Source of the DNA: a phage | Sequence record: PZ452594.1 | Direction: 5' to 3' (one strand) | Length of the DNA stretch: 64,000 nt | Shown here: positions 2,053-63,012 of the stretch, in pieces | Position numbering within the stretch: the stretch's first letter is position 1 | Layout of the letters: each line of letters begins with the position of its first letter | Notes under the pieces: generated by a model | Databases searched by the model: none | What the model was told of the DNA's origin: nothing | Seen by the model: the letters and a program-made list of their open reading frames with translations, nothing else | Translations under genes and position numbers: made by a program

Positions 2053-2633
2053 TATTCACCACAGAATTCGTTGATATTTTCCCAGTTTAACTTATTCAAG
2101 TTTTTCTTAGGAACATTAAACACTTCAATACCCGCATTTCGCAGAATATCATCCCAGCCAGGTTTATTTTTATCGTATGTTTCGCAATAAACCAGCTTTT
2201 TAATACCAGATTGAGCTATCGCTTTTGCACAATCTGGGCAAGGAGAAAGTGTTACATACATAGTAGCACCTTCAATAGAAGAACCATTTCGTGCAGCAAA
2301 CAAAATTGCATTTAGTTCAGCATGAATTTCATTTTTAGATGACCATTCCGAGTGAGCGCTGCGGTGTTCTTTCGCCAAGACAAAACGATCAGTTGAACCA
2401 AATGATACACATTCAGGCTTATGACCTTGAATGATAGTATGTTTAGGCTTATTCAGTAACCAGCCTTGCTCAGCAGCATAATCACAACAGTTCACACCCC
2501 CTGCGGGTGAACCATTATACCCAGTAGAAATAATACGTCCATTCTTTTCAATTACTGCTCCTACCTTCCAGGAGCAACATTTTGATTCCTGTGATACTAA
2601 ATATGCAATTTGAAGTACTGTACTCGCTTTCAT
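2052..2633 (-). CDS. cd: dCMP deaminase
   Basis: 193 aa; zinc-binding HAE...PCxxC deaminase motifs (HAELNAI, SPCPDCAKAI). Confidence 0.9.
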   Translation of the reverse strand: MKASTVLQIAYLVSQESKCCSWKVGAVIEKNGRIISTGYNGSPAGGVNCCDYAAEQGWLLNKPKHTIIQGHKPECVSFGSTDRFVLAKEHRSAHSEWSSKNEIHAELNAILFAARNGSSIEGATMYVTLSPCPDCAKAIAQSGIKKLVYCETYDKNKPGWDDILRNAGIEVFNVPKKNLNKLNWENINEFCGE

Positions 2634-2968
2634 TTCATAATCACCAGATAAGCAGATTTAGCAGTTTCAACACGATAAATTTCGTGACGAAGTTTAGTTA
2701 TACTTTTAATAACAGAACTAATTATATTCTGCCCATCTTTAAAGCGGTTTTTCTTATCAATAAAAACTGCGCCAGTCATCTTTTTGTGAAGCTCAACCGG
2801 ATACTTCGTCACAATAATAGCATCATACACAGAAGGATGAATACTATTCACCAGAGTATCATTCATTAAAGTTATTCTAATGAACTGTGCTGTTTCAGAA
2901 TCAAGCGCTCTATGATCGCCAGTATCATTTTCAAGACAATTATCAATTATATCAGTTAAATTCATCAT
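2630..2968 (-). CDS. hypothetical protein (cd.1-like)
   Basis: 112-aa ORF, start overlaps next gene stop. Confidence 0.5.
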   Translation of the reverse strand: MMNLTDIIDNCLENDTGDHRALDSETAQFIRITLMNDTLVNSIHPSVYDAIIVTKYPVELHKKMTGAVFIDKKNRFKDGQNIISSVIKSITKLRHEIYRVETAKSAYLVIMK

Positions 2969-3201
2969 AGTACGCCATACACCCTTTGTGCTTCAACTAA
3001 TCCATCAAAATCTAATTTAAGATGCGATATTTGATCGCCATCACCTGGATTCACAATTACTAATACTGAACGAGGGGTTTCAGTAATAACACGAACCGAT
3101 GTTTCAGGAAATCGTTCAGAAACCTTATTTACTAATTCCTGTGCAAATAGTTTAACTTTTTCTTGGAATTCTTTAACAGTAATTGGTTTTTCACTTAGCA
3201 T
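2965..3201 (-). CDS. hypothetical protein
   Basis: 78-aa ORF with SD GAGGAAAACAAA before ATG. Confidence 0.5.
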   Translation of the reverse strand: MLSEKPITVKEFQEKVKLFAQELVNKVSERFPETSVRVITETPRSVLVIVNPGDGDQISHLKLDFDGLVEAQRVYGVL

Positions 3202-3231
3202 TTTGTTTTCCTCATTTGTTTTGGTAGAGCT

Positions 3232-3261
3232 ATAATATCACAACTCTACCGTAAAGTAAAC
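3232..3261 (-). promoter_or_regulatory. T4-type early promoter (GTTTAC-18-TATTAT)
   Basis: GTTTAC at 3256-3261 (minus), -10 at 3232-3237, just upstream of the 2965-3201 ORF. Confidence 0.5.
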
Positions 3262-3263
3262 TA

Positions 3264-3539
3264 TTAAATTGCTTTGAATTCTGATGTCTGTGATTCAAAG
3301 CGAATATCGCCTTTGATGACTAGCTCAGCATCAAGACCGAATACGACAATGATATGCGCTGAACCTGGATACAACGTGATGGCAACAGAATCCACCTGGT
3401 CTGGAAGCAAAGTATTCAATACATGAGTCACTTGAGCATGGATTCGAAGCTCAGCTGCATTATCAAGTTTTTCAAACATATTATTAGCGATAATTTGGCT
3501 AAACACTACTTCTACGATTTTAGAGTAAGTCGGAAACAT
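3264..3539 (-). CDS. hypothetical protein
   Basis: 91-aa ORF. Confidence 0.5.
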   Translation of the reverse strand: MFPTYSKIVEVVFSQIIANNMFEKLDNAAELRIHAQVTHVLNTLLPDQVDSVAITLYPGSAHIIVVFGLDAELVIKGDIRFESQTSEFKAI

Positions 3540-6335: not shown

Positions 6336-6365
6336 ATTATAACACAACATGAGGGACTTGTAAAC
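6336..6365 (-). promoter_or_regulatory. T4-type early promoter (GTTTAC-18-TATAAT)
   Basis: GTTTAC at 6360-6365 and TATAAT at 6336-6341 (minus strand), just upstream of alc. Confidence 0.55.
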
Positions 6366-33423: not shown

Positions 33424-33573
33424 TTACTGCTCGAACGCGATAACTATCGTGATAACACGTTGAATTCCGAACGCAAGAAGACCTCCTGCTACGGCTGGAA
33501 CAACGCCTAAACCCGCCAGTAAAATGCTACCAGATACTAATGCAGCGCTTGTAATACCTATGAATGGACTCAT
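33424..33573 (-). CDS. small hydrophobic protein, 49 aa (below track cutoff)
   Basis: ATG overlaps the gene 52 stop (ATGA); predicted membrane peptide MSPFIGITSAALVSGSILLAGLG... Confidence 0.45.
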   Translation of the reverse strand: MSPFIGITSAALVSGSILLAGLGVVPAVAGGLLAFGIQRVITIVIAFEQ

Positions 33574-34898
33574 TTGATTTCCTCTAAATCTTTGGCGTAT
33601 TCTGTAACTACATCAGTAGTTTTCCAATATTCGTTTTCTTCTTTTTTAGCTTTAGCTTCTTCAGCAAGTTTCTTCGCTTCATCGGAAGTCATATGAAAAA
33701 TATTCATTCCAACTAGTTTATCAACATAAGAAGAATACATATCGATTTTCGAAAGTTCTTCGGTCAGTTCTTTACGAGTTTTACCCTGTACAACAATTTC
33801 ACCTGAAATTACTTTCTTAATGAAATGTGCCTTGGCAAAGGCTAAACGAAAAGCTGACTCAGTTTCTTTAATTTTGTTATCAATTCGTTTTTGAACATAA
33901 GTTTTACGAACTTCAACAAAGTCTTTAATTAAATCAACTACGTTATCGTAAACTTGTAGTTTTCCTTTCTCATTAATGACGGTAATATTCTGAGAACGAC
34001 GCTCAATCAACCCGAAGTCTTTCATAATTTTTGCATGGCGTTCTTCTTCGTTATCGCTCAAAGAATATTCTTTACGGAATTTAACTTTGAACCCAAAACC
34101 ATGCTCACCACAAGCATCATCCCACGTAATGAAGCCTTTATCTTCAAGTGGGTCTAAGATTTTACTCACATAAGTTTCACGATCATACTTATACGGAATC
34201 TCAGTGATATGCATTTGAGTTCGTGAAGTAAACTTATATGTTCCACGAATTTCATATTGCCCATCAATTTCAACGACTTCACCACGAAATTCTGGGAATT
34301 CTACCTTCGGTTTAGTTACTTTCTTTCCTTGAAGAGCTTGTAATACAGCTTTCTTAACAGAAGAAACACTATGAGGAAGAATGTAAGTTGCATAACCAGT
34401 TGCAATACCGGAAACGCCATTAAGAAGAACAGTAGGAATAATAGGCAAATAGAAAGCAGGCGGAATGTGTTCTTTATCTTGATGTACCGGAGCATATTCA
34501 GTATCTTTATATACGTTATAGAAATTTTTACTTACACGAGCAAAAATATAACGACTTGCTGCTGCTTTTTGGACGGTACGAGAACCAAAGTTTCCTTGAC
34601 CATCTAACAGAGGAAAGTTATTATTCCAAGTGTTAGCCATCAAAGCACCTGCGTCTTGCGCAGAGTTTTCACCATGATGATATCCAAGGTCCGCTACACC
34701 GCCTGCGATAGAAGCGAGTTTGTGAAACTTATCTTTATTTCCTCGTGCCAAATCAAGAGCTCGAGCAATAACAAATCGTTGAACTGGCTTAAATCCATCA
34801 ATCATATTTGGAATGGCACGATTTTCAACCGTGTACATAGCATAAGCCAATGCTTCATTATCAATGATACTTTTTAAATCGCGATTATTCAGTTGCAT
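33570..34898 (-). CDS. 52: gp52 topoisomerase II medium subunit (GyrA-like)
   Basis: 442-aa ORF; length and position as T4 gp52. Confidence 0.92.
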   Translation of the reverse strand: MQLNNRDLKSIIDNEALAYAMYTVENRAIPNMIDGFKPVQRFVIARALDLARGNKDKFHKLASIAGGVADLGYHHGENSAQDAGALMANTWNNNFPLLDGQGNFGSRTVQKAAASRYIFARVSKNFYNVYKDTEYAPVHQDKEHIPPAFYLPIIPTVLLNGVSGIATGYATYILPHSVSSVKKAVLQALQGKKVTKPKVEFPEFRGEVVEIDGQYEIRGTYKFTSRTQMHITEIPYKYDRETYVSKILDPLEDKGFITWDDACGEHGFGFKVKFRKEYSLSDNEEERHAKIMKDFGLIERRSQNITVINEKGKLQVYDNVVDLIKDFVEVRKTYVQKRIDNKIKETESAFRLAFAKAHFIKKVISGEIVVQGKTRKELTEELSKIDMYSSYVDKLVGMNIFHMTSDEAKKLAEEAKAKKEENEYWKTTDVVTEYAKDLEEIK

Positions 34899-34902
34899 AA
34901 AT

Positions 34903-35043
34903 TTACCATACTAGTGAATGTAGTGCCATAATAACATCAGAAATGAAAAGCACGACTTGAATTAATCCGAACATTACTCCATAATATAGTGCTATTAATA
35001 AAATAGCAAGGGCTAATGAATAGCCCAAGATTTTCTTAATCAT
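34903..35043 (-). CDS. small hydrophobic protein, 46 aa (52.1-like; below track cutoff)
   Basis: ATG overlaps the stop of the next ORF; sequence MIKKILGYSLALAILLIALYYGVMFG... Confidence 0.4.
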   Translation of the reverse strand: MIKKILGYSLALAILLIALYYGVMFGLIQVVLFISDVIMALHSLVW

Positions 35044-35191
35044 TAGATAACAACACAAATGTTAAATATGCACACATACCCTGAGCTAAAGCTTGCGAAA
35101 ACACACTGCTGGCATCAATACAGATAGTTAAAACACATGCTACTATCCAACAAATAAATGAAATAACTCCTAATAATTTTGCAATATTCAT
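35036..35191 (-). CDS. ac: small membrane protein, 51 aa (ac-like; below track cutoff)
   Basis: SD GAGGAAAATA before ATG; 51 aa hydrophobic (MNIAKLLGVISFICWIVACVL...). Confidence 0.5.
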   Translation of the reverse strand: MNIAKLLGVISFICWIVACVLTICIDASSVFSQALAQGMCAYLTFVLLSND

Positions 35192-35198
35192 ATTTTCC

Positions 35199-35279
35199 TC
35201 ACTGGCGTCCGAAGACGCCTTTAGTTTTAAAATTATTACGATAGAACTGCATCACATGTTCGTTATGGAAATTACTCAT
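35199..35279 (-). CDS. stp: Stp peptide, 26 aa (below track cutoff)
   Basis: [29 protein letters not shown]; ATG overlaps ndd stop; matches T4 Stp by recall. Confidence 0.8.
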
Positions 35280-35737
35280 TAATATGCCTGCAAAACAAAT
35301 TTAAAGTTATCAGCCAACATACGGTTCATTTCTTCAAGTGTTTGATACTCAGAATGATGATTACGAGTAAACGCCAAAGCTAACTGACCTTTACCAAATC
35401 CTGTCGTCAGAGGTTTCATCTTAGAAGCAGGCAGATAAAATACTGTGTATGGAACATTGTTATTTGCAATAGTACGTGCAAGCTGAGACCGACGTTGACG
35501 AATATGACTTAGAACTGCACTGAATCCTTGCTTAGAACGCTGATTACCTACATAAAATCGTGCAGACACACATGGATTACTAAATGGACGACCATCTAAT
35601 TTACTTACTAAAAAGTAAAATCCAGGTTTAGATAAAATATCTTTATGCGGAGTTCCCAAAAACCATTCACCACCCTTGATTGTACCAATAACGGTAGCGC
35701 CCGCATTATTCAGATCAGTAACAGTCATGTATTTCAT
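35279..35737 (-). CDS. ndd: Ndd nucleoid disruption protein
   Basis: 152 aa from internal ATG with SD GAGGAAATTAAT. Confidence 0.85.
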
Positions 35738-35797
35738 ATTAATTTCCTCTAAATTATTTTCTACTCCAAGGCCGCATGAATACACACGGCCATTAAA

Positions 35798-36013
35798 TTA
35801 ATCGTCGCAGTCGACGCTCAATTCCCAAAACTCTTCTACGGTATAAGTTTCAGTATCATTTTCAATACAGAAACGTTCATTACTATTGTTTGCTAAAGTA
35901 GCGTTAACTGTCATTTTCTCGCTGGTGCTCTTAAGAGGTGAAATACGAATTAACTGATCGCCGTTATCTAAACAAAAAATTTCACCAACTTTTACATCTT
36001 TAAAGATTTTCAT
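35798..36013 (-). CDS. hypothetical protein (ndd.1-like)
   Basis: 71-aa ORF. Confidence 0.45.
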   Translation of the reverse strand: MKIFKDVKVGEIFCLDNGDQLIRISPLKSTSEKMTVNATLANNSNERFCIENDTETYTVEEFWELSVDCDD

Positions 36014-36128
36014 AATTCACCTCAAGGAGTATAAAATCCAAACGCAGTTGTTGACCATCCCATCCAATACGGGAAATTTGCGCCAATGTAAAACATAAGA
36101 ATATAAAACCAACCGCTCAGCAAATTCA

Positions 36129-36347
36129 TCATTTTACACCATTCCAAATTGTTTCAATCACGGATTTTAAACCATTTTGATGAATATCAATTCCGACAAC
36201 TGCCATCAAATAGATTCCAACTACAACTGAACCCAAGGCGAAAATCAGCATGAAAATGAATAAAGCCGGAAAAATATTATCGAAAAACCATTCAATAAAT
36301 GTAAAAGCACTGCGTTTACGCTTCATATTTTCCTCACATAAATCCAA
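36129..36347 (-). CDS. small membrane protein
   Basis: 72 aa with two hydrophobic segments. Confidence 0.5.
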   Translation of the reverse strand: MDLCEENMKRKRSAFTFIEWFFDNIFPALFIFMLIFALGSVVVGIYLMAVVGIDIHQNGLKSVIETIWNGVK

Positions 36348-36447
36348 AGTAAACGTTTAATACATCAATCATTAAAACGATTGGGAATATACTCAAAACT
36401 ATTAGTATTATAACTACATTCCATATAGCTTTAACAATCTTTTTCAT
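36334..36447 (-). CDS. small membrane peptide, 37 aa
   Basis: Internal ATG with SD GGAGGAACAGAAA; track extension lies in the promoter. Confidence 0.45.
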   Translation of the reverse strand: MKKIVKAIWNVVIILIVLSIFPIVLMIDVLNVYFGFM

Positions 36448-36475
36448 TTTCTGTTCCTCCGTAGTTGATAGGGTA

Positions 36476-36505
36476 ATAGTACTACGGAGGAACAGTCTTG
36501 TAAAC
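36476..36505 (-). promoter_or_regulatory. T4-type early promoter (GTTTAC-18-TACTAT)
   Basis: GTTTAC 36500-36505, -10 36476-36481; 14-bp inverted repeat CTGTTCCTCCGTAG / CTACGGAGGAACAG flanks the -10. Confidence 0.55.
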
Positions 36506-36754
36506 AACTTTTTTAAAAATATTCGTAATAAATGTGAATACCAATCACTACTGCCGAAACCTGTGCAACCCACCACGCACAAGCAATAAGTACAGAATTC
36601 AAAATTTTCATAATAACCTCATCACAAAAGTAAATGTTAAACAAATTACTGGAATACTAATTAACCAAACAAAACACCACCATAATGAACTCATAGTTCA
36701 ATCTCAGCGATTTTCATTTTATTCTCCAAATCTGTATCAGTAGTTGATAGTTGT

Positions 36755-36784
36755 ATAGTACCACGGTCCTTGTGGTATGTAAAC
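36755..36784 (-). promoter_or_regulatory. T4-type early promoter (GTTTAC-18-TACTAT)
   Basis: GTTTAC 36779-36784, -10 36755-36760; conserved box as at 33339 and 62983. Confidence 0.6.
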
Positions 36785-36799
36785 CATTTTGTGAAATTT

Positions 36800-37357
36800 T
36801 TAAATGGAAAGATACCATCCGTTGTAGTTGCTTTTTCTTACAACCTTACGAAGGTCTTCTCTGTCACCGATGAACTTCGGAGTGTACTGGATGACACCTG
36901 GATGAATTTCTTTAGTGTTGAATATAATTATACAGTCAGCGACTTGATGATTCAGAATGGGCCCTAGATTTATTCCAGAACCGTATGGATACTCTCCGCT
37001 GCATCCGGTTGTTACCGAAATCCATCGTGAGTCAGTTTGATGTGTTTTGACTTCTACACGAAGCCCACAGTATTTTGGATGCGCCAATACATCCCATGCA
37101 TATGTATATGGGTCATTAACATCCTCTTGGCCTTTGTTAACATACCCGCTTAGCCAATCTGCTACAAAAAATTCTGCGTACACAGCGATACGACATCTTT
37201 CAATAACTTCTGCTTTATCCTGGTTCGGGTTTTGTTTTAAAGAGTATCTTGCTGTATCAGCAATTTTGGCCTTCATTTCACTAGTCAAGTCACTGTTCGA
37301 TAGGGTAAATGTCGGAATCTGAAATAGTCTCTGCAAACCCGGATTCGTTTTCTGCAT
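36800..37357 (-). CDS. denB: endonuclease IV
   Basis: 185-aa ORF; length and position as T4 DenB. Confidence 0.8.
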   Translation of the reverse strand: MQKTNPGLQRLFQIPTFTLSNSDLTSEMKAKIADTARYSLKQNPNQDKAEVIERCRIAVYAEFFVADWLSGYVNKGQEDVNDPYTYAWDVLAHPKYCGLRVEVKTHQTDSRWISVTTGCSGEYPYGSGINLGPILNHQVADCIIIFNTKEIHPGVIQYTPKFIGDREDLRKVVRKSNYNGWYLSI

Positions 37358-37420
37358 TTAAACTTTCCTTTATGTCGGAATCATAATTTCCCTTAAAACA
37401 AAAGGGCCGAAGCCCTTATT

Positions 37421-37615
37421 TTATTTGAATTGTGCAATTCTTTTTTCTAAACAATCTGCGTAAGATTTCATTGAGATGAACTGTGAAAGCAACAGTTCTT
37501 GCTCAACTGCACTAACCGTTAGAAACTTTGCGCTTTCTAAAAATTTGCTAAGTGCATTAATTTTGAGCATTAATTGATCGTATTCTTCTTTTACTCGTGC
37601 TTGATAACCTAACAT
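37421..37615 (-). CDS. hypothetical protein (rIIB.1-like)
   Basis: 64-aa ORF flanked by GGGC-CGAA-GCCC hairpins. Confidence 0.5.
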   Translation of the reverse strand: MLGYQARVKEEYDQLMLKINALSKFLESAKFLTVSAVEQELLLSQFISMKSYADCLEKRIAQFK

Positions 37616-37643
37616 AATTTTCCTTAGTTAAGGGCCGAAGCCC

Positions 37644-38582
37644 TTATTTAAATTGTTCAGTAACGTCTTCAACTACTTCGTATTGGCAGGTACGCATTTT
37701 AGCATCGTTGTAATCAATCGGAATTGATACTACATCACGCGGATGTACTTTAACTTTTACGACTCGGATGGTTGAACTGCCAAAGTGACGAATATAAGAT
37801 TTAGAACATACATGCAGACCACGAGAACAAGTTTGTGTATCATCGTCATTCACACGAGTACGTGGCATTTTAACTACTTTACCCGGACTGTTATCAAAGG
37901 TGTTTGAGTGACAGTCAAAGTAATTGCTGCGAACTACTTTCCAAGCATAGAAGTAACCATCTTCTGTAATTTCAATATCGTTTGCTACCAAGAAATCAAA
38001 GAGTCGAGATACTGCTTTTTGGCTCGGGTTTTCCAACAGATTTTCCAAGAACGGAAAATAAAATTCAAAGTTTTCGCCTTTTTCCATCGAATCGAGAATA
38101 CGATCAACTAAACCAGACCGCAATTCAATATTTTGATAGAACAAGCTTCCACCTTCAATTCGAACATCACCGGAAATATATTTTTCAACAGCGCGTCGAA
38201 CATTAATTTTTTGTGCAGCTTCTTCTAATTTATCTGCAACAAGCAGATTAAGAATTTCCTGGAAATTTGAATGAGTATTAGGGGTTGCGTTATAAGTTAC
38301 ACCATCAACAGTAATTGAAATGAATTTTTTAGATGCATTCCAAATAATGTCAGATTTAGCAACTGGAGCAATAACTGCATCGCTATTAACTTTAACTGTA
38401 ATATCACCGCTAATAGTAACTTTAGGGTGTTTAGCTTCTTCAGCATTTTTCAAAACACGACGGATTGTGTCAACCGATACACCTTGCCAATCAGCCAATT
38501 CCTGCTGAGTGTAATTACCACTTGAATACAGTTTAACAATTTCAGCTTGTTCGTTTTTGGTCAGGCATTTAATATTGTACAT
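37644..38582 (-). CDS. rIIB: rIIB protein
   Basis: 312-aa ORF directly downstream of rIIA. Confidence 0.9.
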   Translation of the reverse strand: MYNIKCLTKNEQAEIVKLYSSGNYTQQELADWQGVSVDTIRRVLKNAEEAKHPKVTISGDITVKVNSDAVIAPVAKSDIIWNASKKFISITVDGVTYNATPNTHSNFQEILNLLVADKLEEAAQKINVRRAVEKYISGDVRIEGGSLFYQNIELRSGLVDRILDSMEKGENFEFYFPFLENLLENPSQKAVSRLFDFLVANDIEITEDGYFYAWKVVRSNYFDCHSNTFDNSPGKVVKMPRTRVNDDDTQTCSRGLHVCSKSYIRHFGSSTIRVVKVKVHPRDVVSIPIDYNDAKMRTCQYEVVEDVTEQFK

Positions 38583-61166: not shown

Positions 61167-61897
61167 TCACCTTTATAGTCTTTTTTCACAATATGAGTTT
61201 CGCCAGTATTCCACCAATGATCAACCAAGTAAAAATGACGAGAATATACATGAAGACTTCCAACATTCCATATAATAGAACCTGCTTTATACTGACGAGT
61301 TGAATCGCCGGCATTCAAATCAGATACTAATTTATCTAATACGTATTTTTGCCATGCATAATCATTACGGAATCCGAAGACCACGTCATTTGAGCGCATG
61401 TTAACAACCGCATTGACTTTCTTATCACGAATCAGGTACTGTACTGTATTAGTACACATGAAATCTGACATACCATCTTTATTGTAGTCAAATTGCATGG
61501 ATGGACGAGTATAAATCATGATACCACGTCGAGAATCAGGATTTTGACCAAGTTCAGCTAAACACATATCATATTGAGCATAGTTATCTTCTGACCAGAT
61601 AGCCCAACCATAATTCGAGTTAATTTCACCTTTAGAAGATGCTACTTGTTGCCAAATCTTCGGTGTTTCACCCGGAATATCTTTAACGAACAAGCTCTTA
61701 GATTTATACCATTCAAGTTCACGCTGAATGTATTCATCATTAAGAGCGCCAAAAATAAACGGTTCATCTGCTATAAATGATGCGCCAATAATTTCAATAG
61801 TTTTAACGCCAGTTTTATCAACTACGAAATCTTTTTCCTTTAATGCAAGACCCAAATGAAGACGGATTTCTTCAACTGTCATAGAGTCACTAATCAT
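61157..61897 (-). CDS. 42: dCMP hydroxymethylase
   Basis: 246 aa; thymidylate-synthase-like fold, matches T4 gp42 by recall. Confidence 0.93.
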   Translation of the reverse strand: MISDSMTVEEIRLHLGLALKEKDFVVDKTGVKTIEIIGASFIADEPFIFGALNDEYIQRELEWYKSKSLFVKDIPGETPKIWQQVASSKGEINSNYGWAIWSEDNYAQYDMCLAELGQNPDSRRGIMIYTRPSMQFDYNKDGMSDFMCTNTVQYLIRDKKVNAVVNMRSNDVVFGFRNDYAWQKYVLDKLVSDLNAGDSTRQYKAGSIIWNVGSLHVYSRHFYLVDHWWNTGETHIVKKDYKGEWK

Positions 61898-61904
61898 TTA
61901 AACC

Positions 61905-62054
61905 TCAATTGATACATTCATATTTAACTTGTAACAGTAATAAACCCCAACCTATAATAAGTGGCGGAATCATAAGAGGAACTGTTACGCTATAGTATAT
62001 ACTTATTATAACCATCAAGATTAAAAGCAACACTGCTATAATTTTGCTTTTCAT
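61905..62054 (-). CDS. small hydrophobic protein, 49 aa (below track cutoff)
   Basis: ATG overlaps the imm stop (ATGA); MKSKIIAVLLLILMVIISIYYSVTVPLMIPPLIIGWGLLLLQ... Confidence 0.4.
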   Translation of the reverse strand: MKSKIIAVLLLILMVIISIYYSVTVPLMIPPLIIGWGLLLLQVKYECIN

Positions 62055-62982: not shown

Positions 62983-63012
62983 ATAGTACCACAGAGGAAC
63001 AGTCTTGTAAAC
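62983..63012 (-). promoter_or_regulatory. T4-type early promoter (GTTTAC-18-TACTAT)
   Basis: GTTTAC 63007-63012, -10 62983-62988; conserved box CGTAGTTGATAGTTGTATAGTACCACAG. Confidence 0.6.

Follow-up and report, generated by a model that had tools for sequence, protein, structure and literature searches.

Small early genes between denB and ndd of a T4-type phage: selection, promoter cassettes and predicted membrane peptides

The ndd.1-ndd.6 block and its products

The DNA analysed here is a 64,000-nucleotide (nt) stretch of the phage sequence record PZ452594.1, hereafter called the window, and the element in question is a run of very small open reading frames (ORFs) at positions 35798-36790, between the genes denB and ndd. 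DNA comparison revealed that this locus is about 97% identical to the corresponding region of phage T4 (96.8%) and colinear with it, which assigns the window to the genus Tequatrovirus; 515 phage records match the locus, nearly all of them from Tequatrovirus. The records of T4T and T4 annotate the minus-strand ORFs as ndd.6, ndd.5, ndd.4, ndd.3, ndd.2 and ndd.1. All six genes are found between denB and ndd in T4 order and on the same strand, and coding within 35798-36790 is confined to the minus strand, on which all genes, promoters and hairpins described below are located. The locus is the ndd.1-ndd.6 block of a T4-type genome and as such is already annotated and known. It is flanked upstream by denB, encoding endonuclease IV (185 amino acids (aa), 36800-37357), and downstream by ndd, encoding the nucleoid disruption protein (152 aa, 35279-35737). 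A first-pass annotation, made from the sequence alone, had placed a run of small ORFs of about 28 to 72 aa between ndd and denB; the location agrees with the T4 and T4T annotation, and the run comprises six packed ORFs of 28-71 aa when counted from ATG, 72 aa being the length of ndd.3 from a TTG.

The first gene of the block, ndd.6 (36608-36694, 28 aa), is followed by ndd.5 (36513-36611), which encodes 32 aa from an ATG with a Shine-Dalgarno (SD) sequence or 43 aa from a TTG, and by ndd.4 (36334-36447, 37 aa), ndd.3 (36129-36326, 65 aa from ATG), ndd.2 (36022-36132, 36 aa) and ndd.1 (35798-36013, 71 aa). All six ORFs match PHROG families of unknown function over their full length with E-values of 1.6e-17 to 2.7e-38, namely PHROG 8851 (ndd.6, E 1.6e-17), 5011 (ndd.5, E 3.9e-26), 3098 (ndd.4), 2401 (ndd.3), 4135 (ndd.2) and 2183 (ndd.1, E 2.7e-38). 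Four ORFs possess an SD sequence of their own (GAGG for ndd.5, GGAGG for ndd.4, GAGGA for ndd.3 and GAGGTG for ndd.1), and the remaining two, ndd.6 and ndd.2, begin within ATGA stop/start overlaps. Several such overlaps had been predicted, and indeed two of them join members of the block (ndd.6/ndd.5 and ndd.3/ndd.2), while a third joins a mini-ORF to ndd.6.

Hydrophobicity of the products was assessed using the best 19-residue Kyte-Doolittle window (KD19), with a mean above 1.6 over at least 19 residues as the criterion for a single-pass membrane segment. Values above this threshold were obtained for Ndd.6 (2.33; a single hydrophobic helix), Ndd.5 (2.18), Ndd.4 (3.06) and Ndd.3 (2.71), which are clearly predicted to be single-pass membrane peptides, whereas Ndd.2 (1.17) and Ndd.1 (0.48) fail the criterion. 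Ndd.2 is a borderline case, as it is aromatic-rich and contains no charged residues but is only weakly hydrophobic. Ndd.1 is hydrophilic and acidic with a net charge of -8 and is soluble as judged by its sequence. The earlier statement that almost all of the ORFs encode membrane peptides is therefore correct for four products (KD19 2.2-3.1), does not apply to Ndd.1 and is marginal for Ndd.2. The N-termini of Ndd.4 (MKKIVK), Ndd.3 (MKRKR) and Ndd.5 (MK) are basic, which suggests an N-in orientation of these three peptides in the inner membrane. Ndd.3 continues, after its basic N-terminus, with a single long hydrophobic segment and ends in an amphipathic tail. Among minus-strand ATG ORFs of 25-80 aa, KD19 exceeds 1.6 in 25% and 2.0 in 15%. 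Hydrophobicity by itself is thus weak evidence for genes, and it is the packing, the SD sites, the translational coupling and the selection described below that carry the case.

For two of the genes, public T4 records differ from the window. The T4 record AF158101 splits the 65-aa ndd.3 into ndd.2a (40 aa) and ndd.3 (26 aa), whereas T4T and most relatives contain one ORF. The stretch concerned, positions 1633-1829 of the AF158101 locus, corresponds to 36129-36326 of the window, and a frameshift, present either in the old sequence or in the phage stock used for it, is the probable cause of the split; ndd.3 is also broken in T2 (NC_054931; positions 1132-1209 of the T2 locus). The Ndd.4 of the T4 record (UniProt P39249, '5.0 kDa', 42 aa) starts at an ATG that arose from a C-to-T change in the SD region, where T4 reads ACTATGG (positions 1837-1965 of the AF158101 locus) and the window and most relatives read ACTACGG. 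Since this start codon is absent from the window and from most relatives, the conserved Ndd.4 is the 37-aa form.

Selection and conservation

Selection was analysed on 17 Tequatrovirus loci, comprising T4, T4T, T2, T6, ECP52, slur13, FL23, EcNP1, Solly, AUBRB02, 235Ecol030PP, ESH35 and five IMG/VR contigs. The latter are the only loci that a scan of IMG/VR with Ndd returned, and the set was completed from GenBank phage records. The ratio pN/pS was obtained as a crude count of variable sites on unique sequences rather than as a tree-based estimate. In the annotated frame, pN/pS is 0.09 for ndd.6, 0.12 for ndd.5, 0.13 for ndd.3 and 0.10 for ndd.1, and the controls ndd and denB reach 0.10 and 0.06, respectively. 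Most changes are found at third codon positions, as for instance in ndd.5, where they account for eight of the ten variable sites. When the four ORFs and the controls were read in shifted frames, pN/pS was about 1-2.5, except for frame 1 of ndd.6, which gave 0.36, and for frame 2 of ndd.6 and ndd.5, where it is undefined because zero synonymous changes are counted. The genes ndd.1, ndd.3, ndd.5 and ndd.6 are clearly under purifying selection, similar to that acting on ndd and denB. Furthermore, each of the 17 loci contains intact copies of ndd.6, ndd.5, ndd.4 and ndd.1.

The most widely conserved member, and the core of the cluster, is Ndd.4. It was detected by tblastn in 596 phage records, about 100 of which belong to other genera and share roughly 60% identity; homologs are found in Dhakavirus, Gaprivervirus, Mosugukvirus and Kanagawavirus. 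Across the five genera, 16 residues are invariant (M1, K2, K6, I8, W9, N10, V17, L18, I20, F21, P22, V24, M26, I27, D28 and F34). In the Dhakavirus JS10, the interval encodes homologs of Ndd.6 (29 aa), Ndd.4 and Ndd.1 together with other ORFs, and in Pectobacterium phage PM2 it is reduced to denB-ndd.4-ndd. Ndd.6, Ndd.4 and Ndd.1 remain conserved at the protein level in genera whose DNA is about 60-75% identical. Matches to Ndd.3, at more than 90% identity, come almost exclusively from Tequatrovirus; a relative is annotated in Gaprivervirus VR20.

The surroundings of the block vary as well. In many relatives, denB is annotated as shorter (477 nt) and is preceded by an additional ORF encoding about 109 aa, whereas the window and T4 carry a denB of 558 nt; the denB 5' region is another variable point (positions 2536-3355 of the 235Ecol030PP locus, and loci L012, L015, L016 and L018, compared with 36800-37357). 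In Shigella phage ESH35, which is represented by an UNVERIFIED record, ndd.4 directly follows ac, so that the record lacks stp, ndd, ndd.1, ndd.2 and ndd.3 (positions 1347-1626 of its locus); this arrangement reflects a deletion in nature or, alternatively, an error of assembly.

Early promoter cassettes and the hairpin at P2

The first-pass annotation had also proposed two early promoters, at 36476-36505 and 36755-36784, and both are found as TTTACA-N17-TACTAT at 36504-36476 and 36783-36755. The promoter P1 (36755-36783) consists of the -35 element TTTACA (36783-36778), a 17-nt spacer with a TGn motif and the -10 element TACTAT (36760-36755); it lies directly after the denB stop codon and is preceded by an A/T-rich stretch. 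It is kept in nearly all of the 17 Tequatrovirus loci and in JS10, and the exact consensus is missed in locus L003 and in T2. The promoter P2 (36476-36504), with TTTACA at 36504-36499, a 17-nt spacer and TACTAT at 36481-36476, is a diverged copy of P1, as evident from a direct repeat (36458-36487 and 36737-36766) that is 80% identical over 30 nt. Near-identical cassettes are located elsewhere in the window, at 63011 (P2-like) and 33367 (P1-like). While a generic scan for sigma-70 promoters in a 3-kb stretch gave no enrichment over shuffled sequences (14 found, 11.9 expected), the early-promoter consensus TTTACW-N16-18-TAYWAT occurs 16 times in the 64-kb window, compared with 1.16 expected matches; this is a 14-fold excess, and none of 100 shuffles reached 16. 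All 16 matches are on the minus strand, at positions 3260, 6364, 15438, 16148, 19449, 19977, 30908, 33367, 36504, 36783, 41039, 45325, 46404, 53707, 56781 and 63011.

The hyperplastic regions of T4-type genomes contain repeated cassettes termed promoter-early stem-loops (PeSLs; Arbiol et al. 2010, PMC2839356; Comeau et al. 2014, PMC4122927). They are composed of an AT-rich upstream stretch, a sigma-70-like promoter, a stem-loop, which is usually located between the -35 and -10 elements or across the -10 element, and the SD sequence and ATG of the next ORF, and they mediate the insertion, deletion and exchange of ORFs (PMC2839356, PMC4122927). The stem-loop was proposed to act as a terminator or attenuator of upstream transcription and as a recombination site (PMC2839356, PMC4122927); promoter and terminator/attenuator activity in vivo has been shown, by lacZ fusions, for RB49/phi1 only (PMC2839356). 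The denB-ndd interval itself, compared between T4 and PST, is an illustrated example of PeSL exchange (PMC4122927). Both P1 and P2 are PeSL cassettes: they fit the published T4/PST consensus TTTACW-N17-TAYWAT exactly, have A/T runs upstream and end in an SD sequence and a start codon, which is GGAGG-N9-ATG (ndd.4) for P2 and GGAG-N8-ATG (mini-ORF) for P1. They also share with the described PeSLs the dispersed copies, 16 in the window, and the adjoining insertions and deletions between close relatives, here a variable slot after P1 and a deletion junction at the ATG of the cassette. A stem-loop with a 15-bp stem is present at P2; P1 differs from the published cassettes in that its spacer contains only a weak 6-bp stem (UACCAC/GUGGUA), and the fold of the P1 region is indistinguishable from shuffles (z 0.07).

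The slot after P1 contains, in the window, a mini-ORF of eight codons (MKIAEIEL, 36691-36717), which is preceded by the SD sequence GGAG and whose stop codon overlaps the ndd.6 start codon (ATGA). This mini-ORF corresponds to the last eight codons of an 87-aa ORF found at the same position in many relatives. The window lacks 237 bp that are present in 235Ecol030PP, and the deletion junction lies within AAATGAAA, which is common to the start codon of the cassette and to a Met-Lys pair inside the 87-aa ORF, close to its end. Only the 8-codon ORF occupies the slot in the window, T4 and ECP52; T6, 235Ecol030PP, Solly and AUBRB02 carry the 87-aa ORF, T2 and FL23 a 68-aa ORF, and slur13, EcNP1 and PST (ORF268/269) both of them. 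In T2, the MKIAEIEL remnant also follows the 68-aa ORF. As ndd.6 has no good SD sequence of its own, retention of the remnant fits a role of the mini-ORF as a leader that would couple translation into ndd.6.

Overall, the block closely resembles that of T4 (AF158101; T4T, HM137666) in gene order, strand, flanks, the two promoters and the 8-codon remnant before ndd.6, with protein alignment scores of 97-100% of the self-score. It differs from it by about 3% nucleotide divergence, by a single 65-aa ndd.3 as in T4T, and at P2, which in the window lacks the TGn motif that T4 has and is associated with a perfectly paired hairpin.

This hairpin (36451-36495) has a stem of 15 bp without mismatches, formed by an inverted repeat with arms at 36495-36481 and 36465-36451, and a loop of 15 nt. 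The 5' arm is embedded in the promoter spacer and reaches the first base of the -10 element; the 3' arm covers the SD sequence of ndd.4 (GGAGG), stopping 3 nt short of the ATG. For an RNA that reads through the hairpin, a folding energy of -25.9 kcal/mol was calculated (z -6.9, reached by 0 of 200 shuffles), whereas the expected leader of a transcript initiated at P2 (start at about 36469) is unstructured (0 kcal/mol). In an alignment of 13 sequences, taken from Tequatrovirus and from paralogous copies, pairing is retained in 98.5% of cells, and five pairs change on one side only, always in a wobble-compatible manner. As two-sided compensation is absent, this pairing by itself is weak evidence; the covariation shuffle control is uninformative because the Tequatrovirus sequences are too similar. 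Stronger support is provided by the other genera: hairpins that cover the SD sequence are found upstream of the ndd.4 homologs of JS10 (Dhakavirus, z -5.7), VR20 (Gaprivervirus, z -6.2), PM2 (Mosugukvirus, z -3.2) and Entb_45 (Kanagawavirus, z -2.2), with arm sequences that differ each time and are not alignable column by column. In addition, a hairpin straddling the -10 element (z of -2.6 or lower) is present at 7 of the 14 evaluable early-promoter sites of the window, for example at 6364, 46404, 63011 and 3260, and most of these hairpins pair the downstream SD sequence. The PeSL papers do not consider masking of the SD sequence on read-through RNA, which is predicted here for ndd.4 in five genera; the words 'sequester' and 'translation' do not occur in PMC2839356. 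The P2 hairpin may also attenuate transcription.

Hairpin-masked ribosome-binding sites are known from the T4 genes e, soc, 49 and I-TevI, where a promoter inside the hairpin gives rise to an open, translatable mRNA. As in these genes, the SD sequence of ndd.4 would be paired on long upstream transcripts, and an internal promoter would yield a shorter, open mRNA. The internal promoters of e, soc, 49 and I-TevI, however, are late or middle promoters, which provides temporal control, whereas both promoters of the ndd.1-ndd.6 block are early; the hairpin would therefore insulate the cassette rather than time its expression.

Neither a promoter match nor a U-tract terminator was found between ndd.1 and ndd, and because of the missing promoter, ndd is probably co-transcribed with ndd.1. 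Two adjacent hairpins are located here (35770-35824; -26.3 kcal/mol, z -3.5), one at the end of ndd.1 (35795-35824) and the other in the intergenic region (35770-35791, GGCCGUGUG-UAUU-CAUGCGGCC). Neither of them is followed by a U-tract, and the terminator-like prediction covers the first hairpin only. Ahead of ndd, the pair may function in attenuation, as a processing site or as an element for RNA stability.

Proposed role and alternative explanations

The ndd.1-ndd.6 block is likely a non-essential, hyperplastic accessory block that is expressed early from PeSL cassettes and whose predicted membrane peptides would modulate proteins of the host envelope. Sigma-70 RNA polymerase of the host would express it immediately after infection from the two promoters. 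P1 would drive the mini-ORF, which is ATGA-coupled to ndd.6 and, via ndd.6, to ndd.5; P2 would drive ndd.4, ndd.3, ndd.2, which is ATGA-coupled to ndd.3, and ndd.1, and transcription from P2 probably continues into ndd. The P2 hairpin would form only on RNA reading through from P1, thereby burying the SD sequence of ndd.4, so that Ndd.4 would be made mainly from P2-initiated mRNA with its unstructured leader. Within the first minutes of infection, four or five of the peptides would insert into the inner membrane of the host and may act there as small binding partners or modulators of envelope proteins, with a value that depends on the host or the condition, whereas Ndd.1 would be a separate, soluble early factor. 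Since stimulation of phosphatidylglycerol synthesis by T4 is the only phenotype mapped to the surrounding interval, envelope or lipid homeostasis is the most concrete candidate role for the block. The early part of this scheme agrees with data for T4, in which all six genes are classed as early RNA (PMC9697503). The accessory nature of the cluster, which had also been suggested by the first-pass annotation, is in line with the viability of the T4 deletion sa-delta-9, which extends from 52.1 through denB and gives about half the normal yield (PMC6071114). The same annotation had described the peptides as largely uncharacterised; this is true of their function, as reflected by the PHROG and Pfam families, but the region has long been annotated as ndd.1-ndd.6 and is a published example of PeSL exchange.

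Small regulators of the bacterial inner membrane such as AcrZ, MgrB, SgrT and MgtS consist of a single helix, often with a basic N-terminus, and bind larger membrane proteins. The predicted phage peptides resemble them in size (28-65 aa), the single transmembrane helix, the often basic N-terminus and the lack of an enzymatic domain; they share no sequence similarity with them and would be produced during lytic infection, within its first minutes. Closer at hand, Ac and gp52.1 are small, hydrophobic early proteins that are encoded just downstream, are dispensable and are removed along with the locus in sa-delta-9. They belong to different families, and Ac, in contrast to the ndd.x genes, has a known phenotype, acridine sensitivity. 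In the window, the corresponding small and strongly hydrophobic minus-strand ORFs lie at 34903-35043 (gp52.1) and 35036-35191 (Ac); further hydrophobic minus-strand ORFs at 33424-33573, 61186-61314 and 61905-62054 may be real membrane genes or out-of-frame artefacts.

Several observations weigh against the proposed role. We infer membrane location, topology and host targets from the anatomy of the peptides and from context, and searches for homology, fold and defence functions gave no functional match for the cluster. Among the six products, Pfam recognized only Ndd.3, as DUF7248 (PF23906; 67.3 bits with a cut-off of 27, residues 6-63); PADLOC gave zero matches at E-values up to 1, and NCBIfam yielded only noise. 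In the T4 proteome, only Ndd.1 was detected, as an early protein, and the five hydrophobic peptides are listed as 'NA' (PMC9697503). Non-detection of peptides so small and hydrophobic by mass spectrometry is expected, and the authors name the Ndd.4 entry P39249 (5 kDa) as a protein too small for LC-MS (PMC9697503). Knock-down of each gene by CRISPRi-ART (dCas13d) was scored as 'Not Fit', that is, without an effect on fitness in the laboratory host (PMC11879866). With regard to selection, ndd.2 is the weakest-constrained member (pN/pS 0.32), and the value of ndd.4 (0.33) is based on seven variable sites, which are too few within Tequatrovirus to pick out the frame. Moreover, ECP52 carries a truncated ndd.2 and slur13 a frameshifted one, and ndd.3 is split in AF158101 and T2; therefore, not every member of the cluster is needed. 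Two-sided compensatory changes in the P2 hairpin are absent within Tequatrovirus, and the PeSL authors proposed a role of the stem-loop in termination or recombination rather than in SD masking. Finally, the lipid phenotype has been mapped only as far as a deletion of many genes, with denB, ndd, ac and 52.1 among those lost (PMC6071114).

Ndd.1 was studied further as the member that seemed most likely to give a hint at function. A word-indexed homology search retrieved only near-identical Tequatrovirus proteins, and an exhaustive phmmer search against 1.84 billion representatives added up to about six true relatives, all from T4-like phages, along with low-complexity noise; PF26909 is precomputed on Ndd.1 homologs. 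An AlphaFold2 model based on a shallow alignment reached a pLDDT of 44, which increased to 66 (pTM 0.31) upon addition of diverged relatives, and Foldseek found nothing below E = 2 in the PDB. As homology, AlphaFold2 and Foldseek gave no lead, no conclusion on the fold or function of Ndd.1 is drawn. A role of Ndd.4 as a membrane anchor for Ndd was set aside, since its predicted cytoplasmic part consists of only about six residues; Ndd alone is reportedly sufficient for nucleoid disruption. The literature search found no ribosome profiling or global mapping of transcription start sites of T4. The early peptide Emp of Mosigvirus, described in a 2026 preprint, is the product of a different gene, which adjoins motA. 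Several misannotations of the ndd.x ORFs have been propagated in GenBank/RefSeq, among them 'naphthalene 1,2-dioxygenase', 'chaperone for long tail fiber formation', 'putative baseplate wedge subunit', 'outer membrane protein' and, within a note, 'dNMP kinase'; the labels 'outer membrane' and 'periplasmic' in public records are old predictions.

A more specific version of the membrane-modulator reading holds that at least one of Ndd.2-Ndd.6 is the early T4 factor that stimulates phosphatidylglycerol synthesis of the host, acting via a lipid-synthesis or regulatory protein of the inner membrane. The deletion sa-delta-9 virtually abolishes the stimulation of all phospholipid synthesis by T4, and the overlapping deletion rII-delta-DD2 abolishes the stimulation of phosphatidylglycerol synthesis; earlier work had attributed the lipid effect to a protein that is synthesized in the first 5 min after infection, and according to the authors it is not known which genes are responsible (PMC6071114). 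The six genes, all of them early and four or five of them encoding predicted membrane peptides, would match such a factor. However, denB, ndd, stp, ac and 52.1 are lost in these deletions as well, further mutations were present in the strains examined, and the overlap of the deletions, as described, does not resolve to single genes. Pfam and NCBIfam scans, in addition, revealed no sequence feature that ties the peptides to lipid enzymes, and we regard this assignment as rather unlikely.

It is also conceivable that the ORFs represent, for the most part, evolutionary filler separating the mobile promoter cassettes, and that the region is a scaffold for PeSL recombination whose peptides are nearly functionless. 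The lack of a fitness effect upon knock-down, the five of six products that escaped mass spectrometry, the disrupted copies of ndd.2 and ndd.3, the varying contents of the slot after P1 and the 15-25% of random small minus-strand ORFs that look hydrophobic are all compatible with this idea. Filler, however, would hardly display a pN/pS of about 0.1 with variation at third positions, as found for ndd.6, ndd.5, ndd.3 and ndd.1, which is the level of bona fide genes. Likewise, four genes are intact in 17 of 17 loci, Ndd.4, Ndd.6 and Ndd.1 are conserved as proteins while the DNA has diverged, and the coupling mini-ORF was kept after the deletion, which makes this explanation improbable. Finally, a structured non-coding or regulatory RNA as the main product with incidental ORFs, which had been named as the finding that would refute the first-pass annotation, is effectively excluded: the very stable P2 hairpin (z -6.9) and the hairpin pair after ndd.1 (z -3.5) are local structures (45 and 55 nt of about 1000), the variation elsewhere tracks the codon positions of the annotated frames, the ORFs possess SD sites and ATGA coupling, and a permissive Rfam scan of 34800-37800 found no family at the gathering threshold, the potC match on the P2 hairpin (23.8 bits against a threshold of 44, E 0.14) being rejected as chance.

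Within the preferred reading of an accessory block of membrane modulators, it is tempting to speculate that the promoter-embedded hairpin is a switch that senses the origin of the transcript and thereby translationally insulates each mobile promoter-ORF cassette of the T4-type hyperplastic regions, and that Ndd.4 is a specific binder of a conserved inner-membrane protein of the host, possibly one of the factors that stimulate phosphatidylglycerol synthesis; we put this forward as a tentative proposal that is possible but not probable. A specific host-protein binder would fit the retention of Ndd.4 beside ndd and denB in five genera and its 16 invariant residues.

The ORFs, the promoters and their cassette nature are already contained in the T4 annotation and the PeSL papers and carry little weight as a discovery. 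The present analysis makes modest additions, namely the selection analysis for each ORF, the identification of Ndd.4 as the core, the origin of the mini-ORF and the conserved geometry of SD masking. Very small membrane peptides that are under selection and lack a detected product or phenotype represent a typical 'dark matter' gap in phage biology. The locus lies within the only interval that has been genetically linked to the stimulation of phosphatidylglycerol synthesis by T4, a question that dates back to the late 1960s. If the proposed switch is true, the P2 hairpin would offer a simple rule by which shuffled promoter-ORF cassettes avoid interfering with each other.

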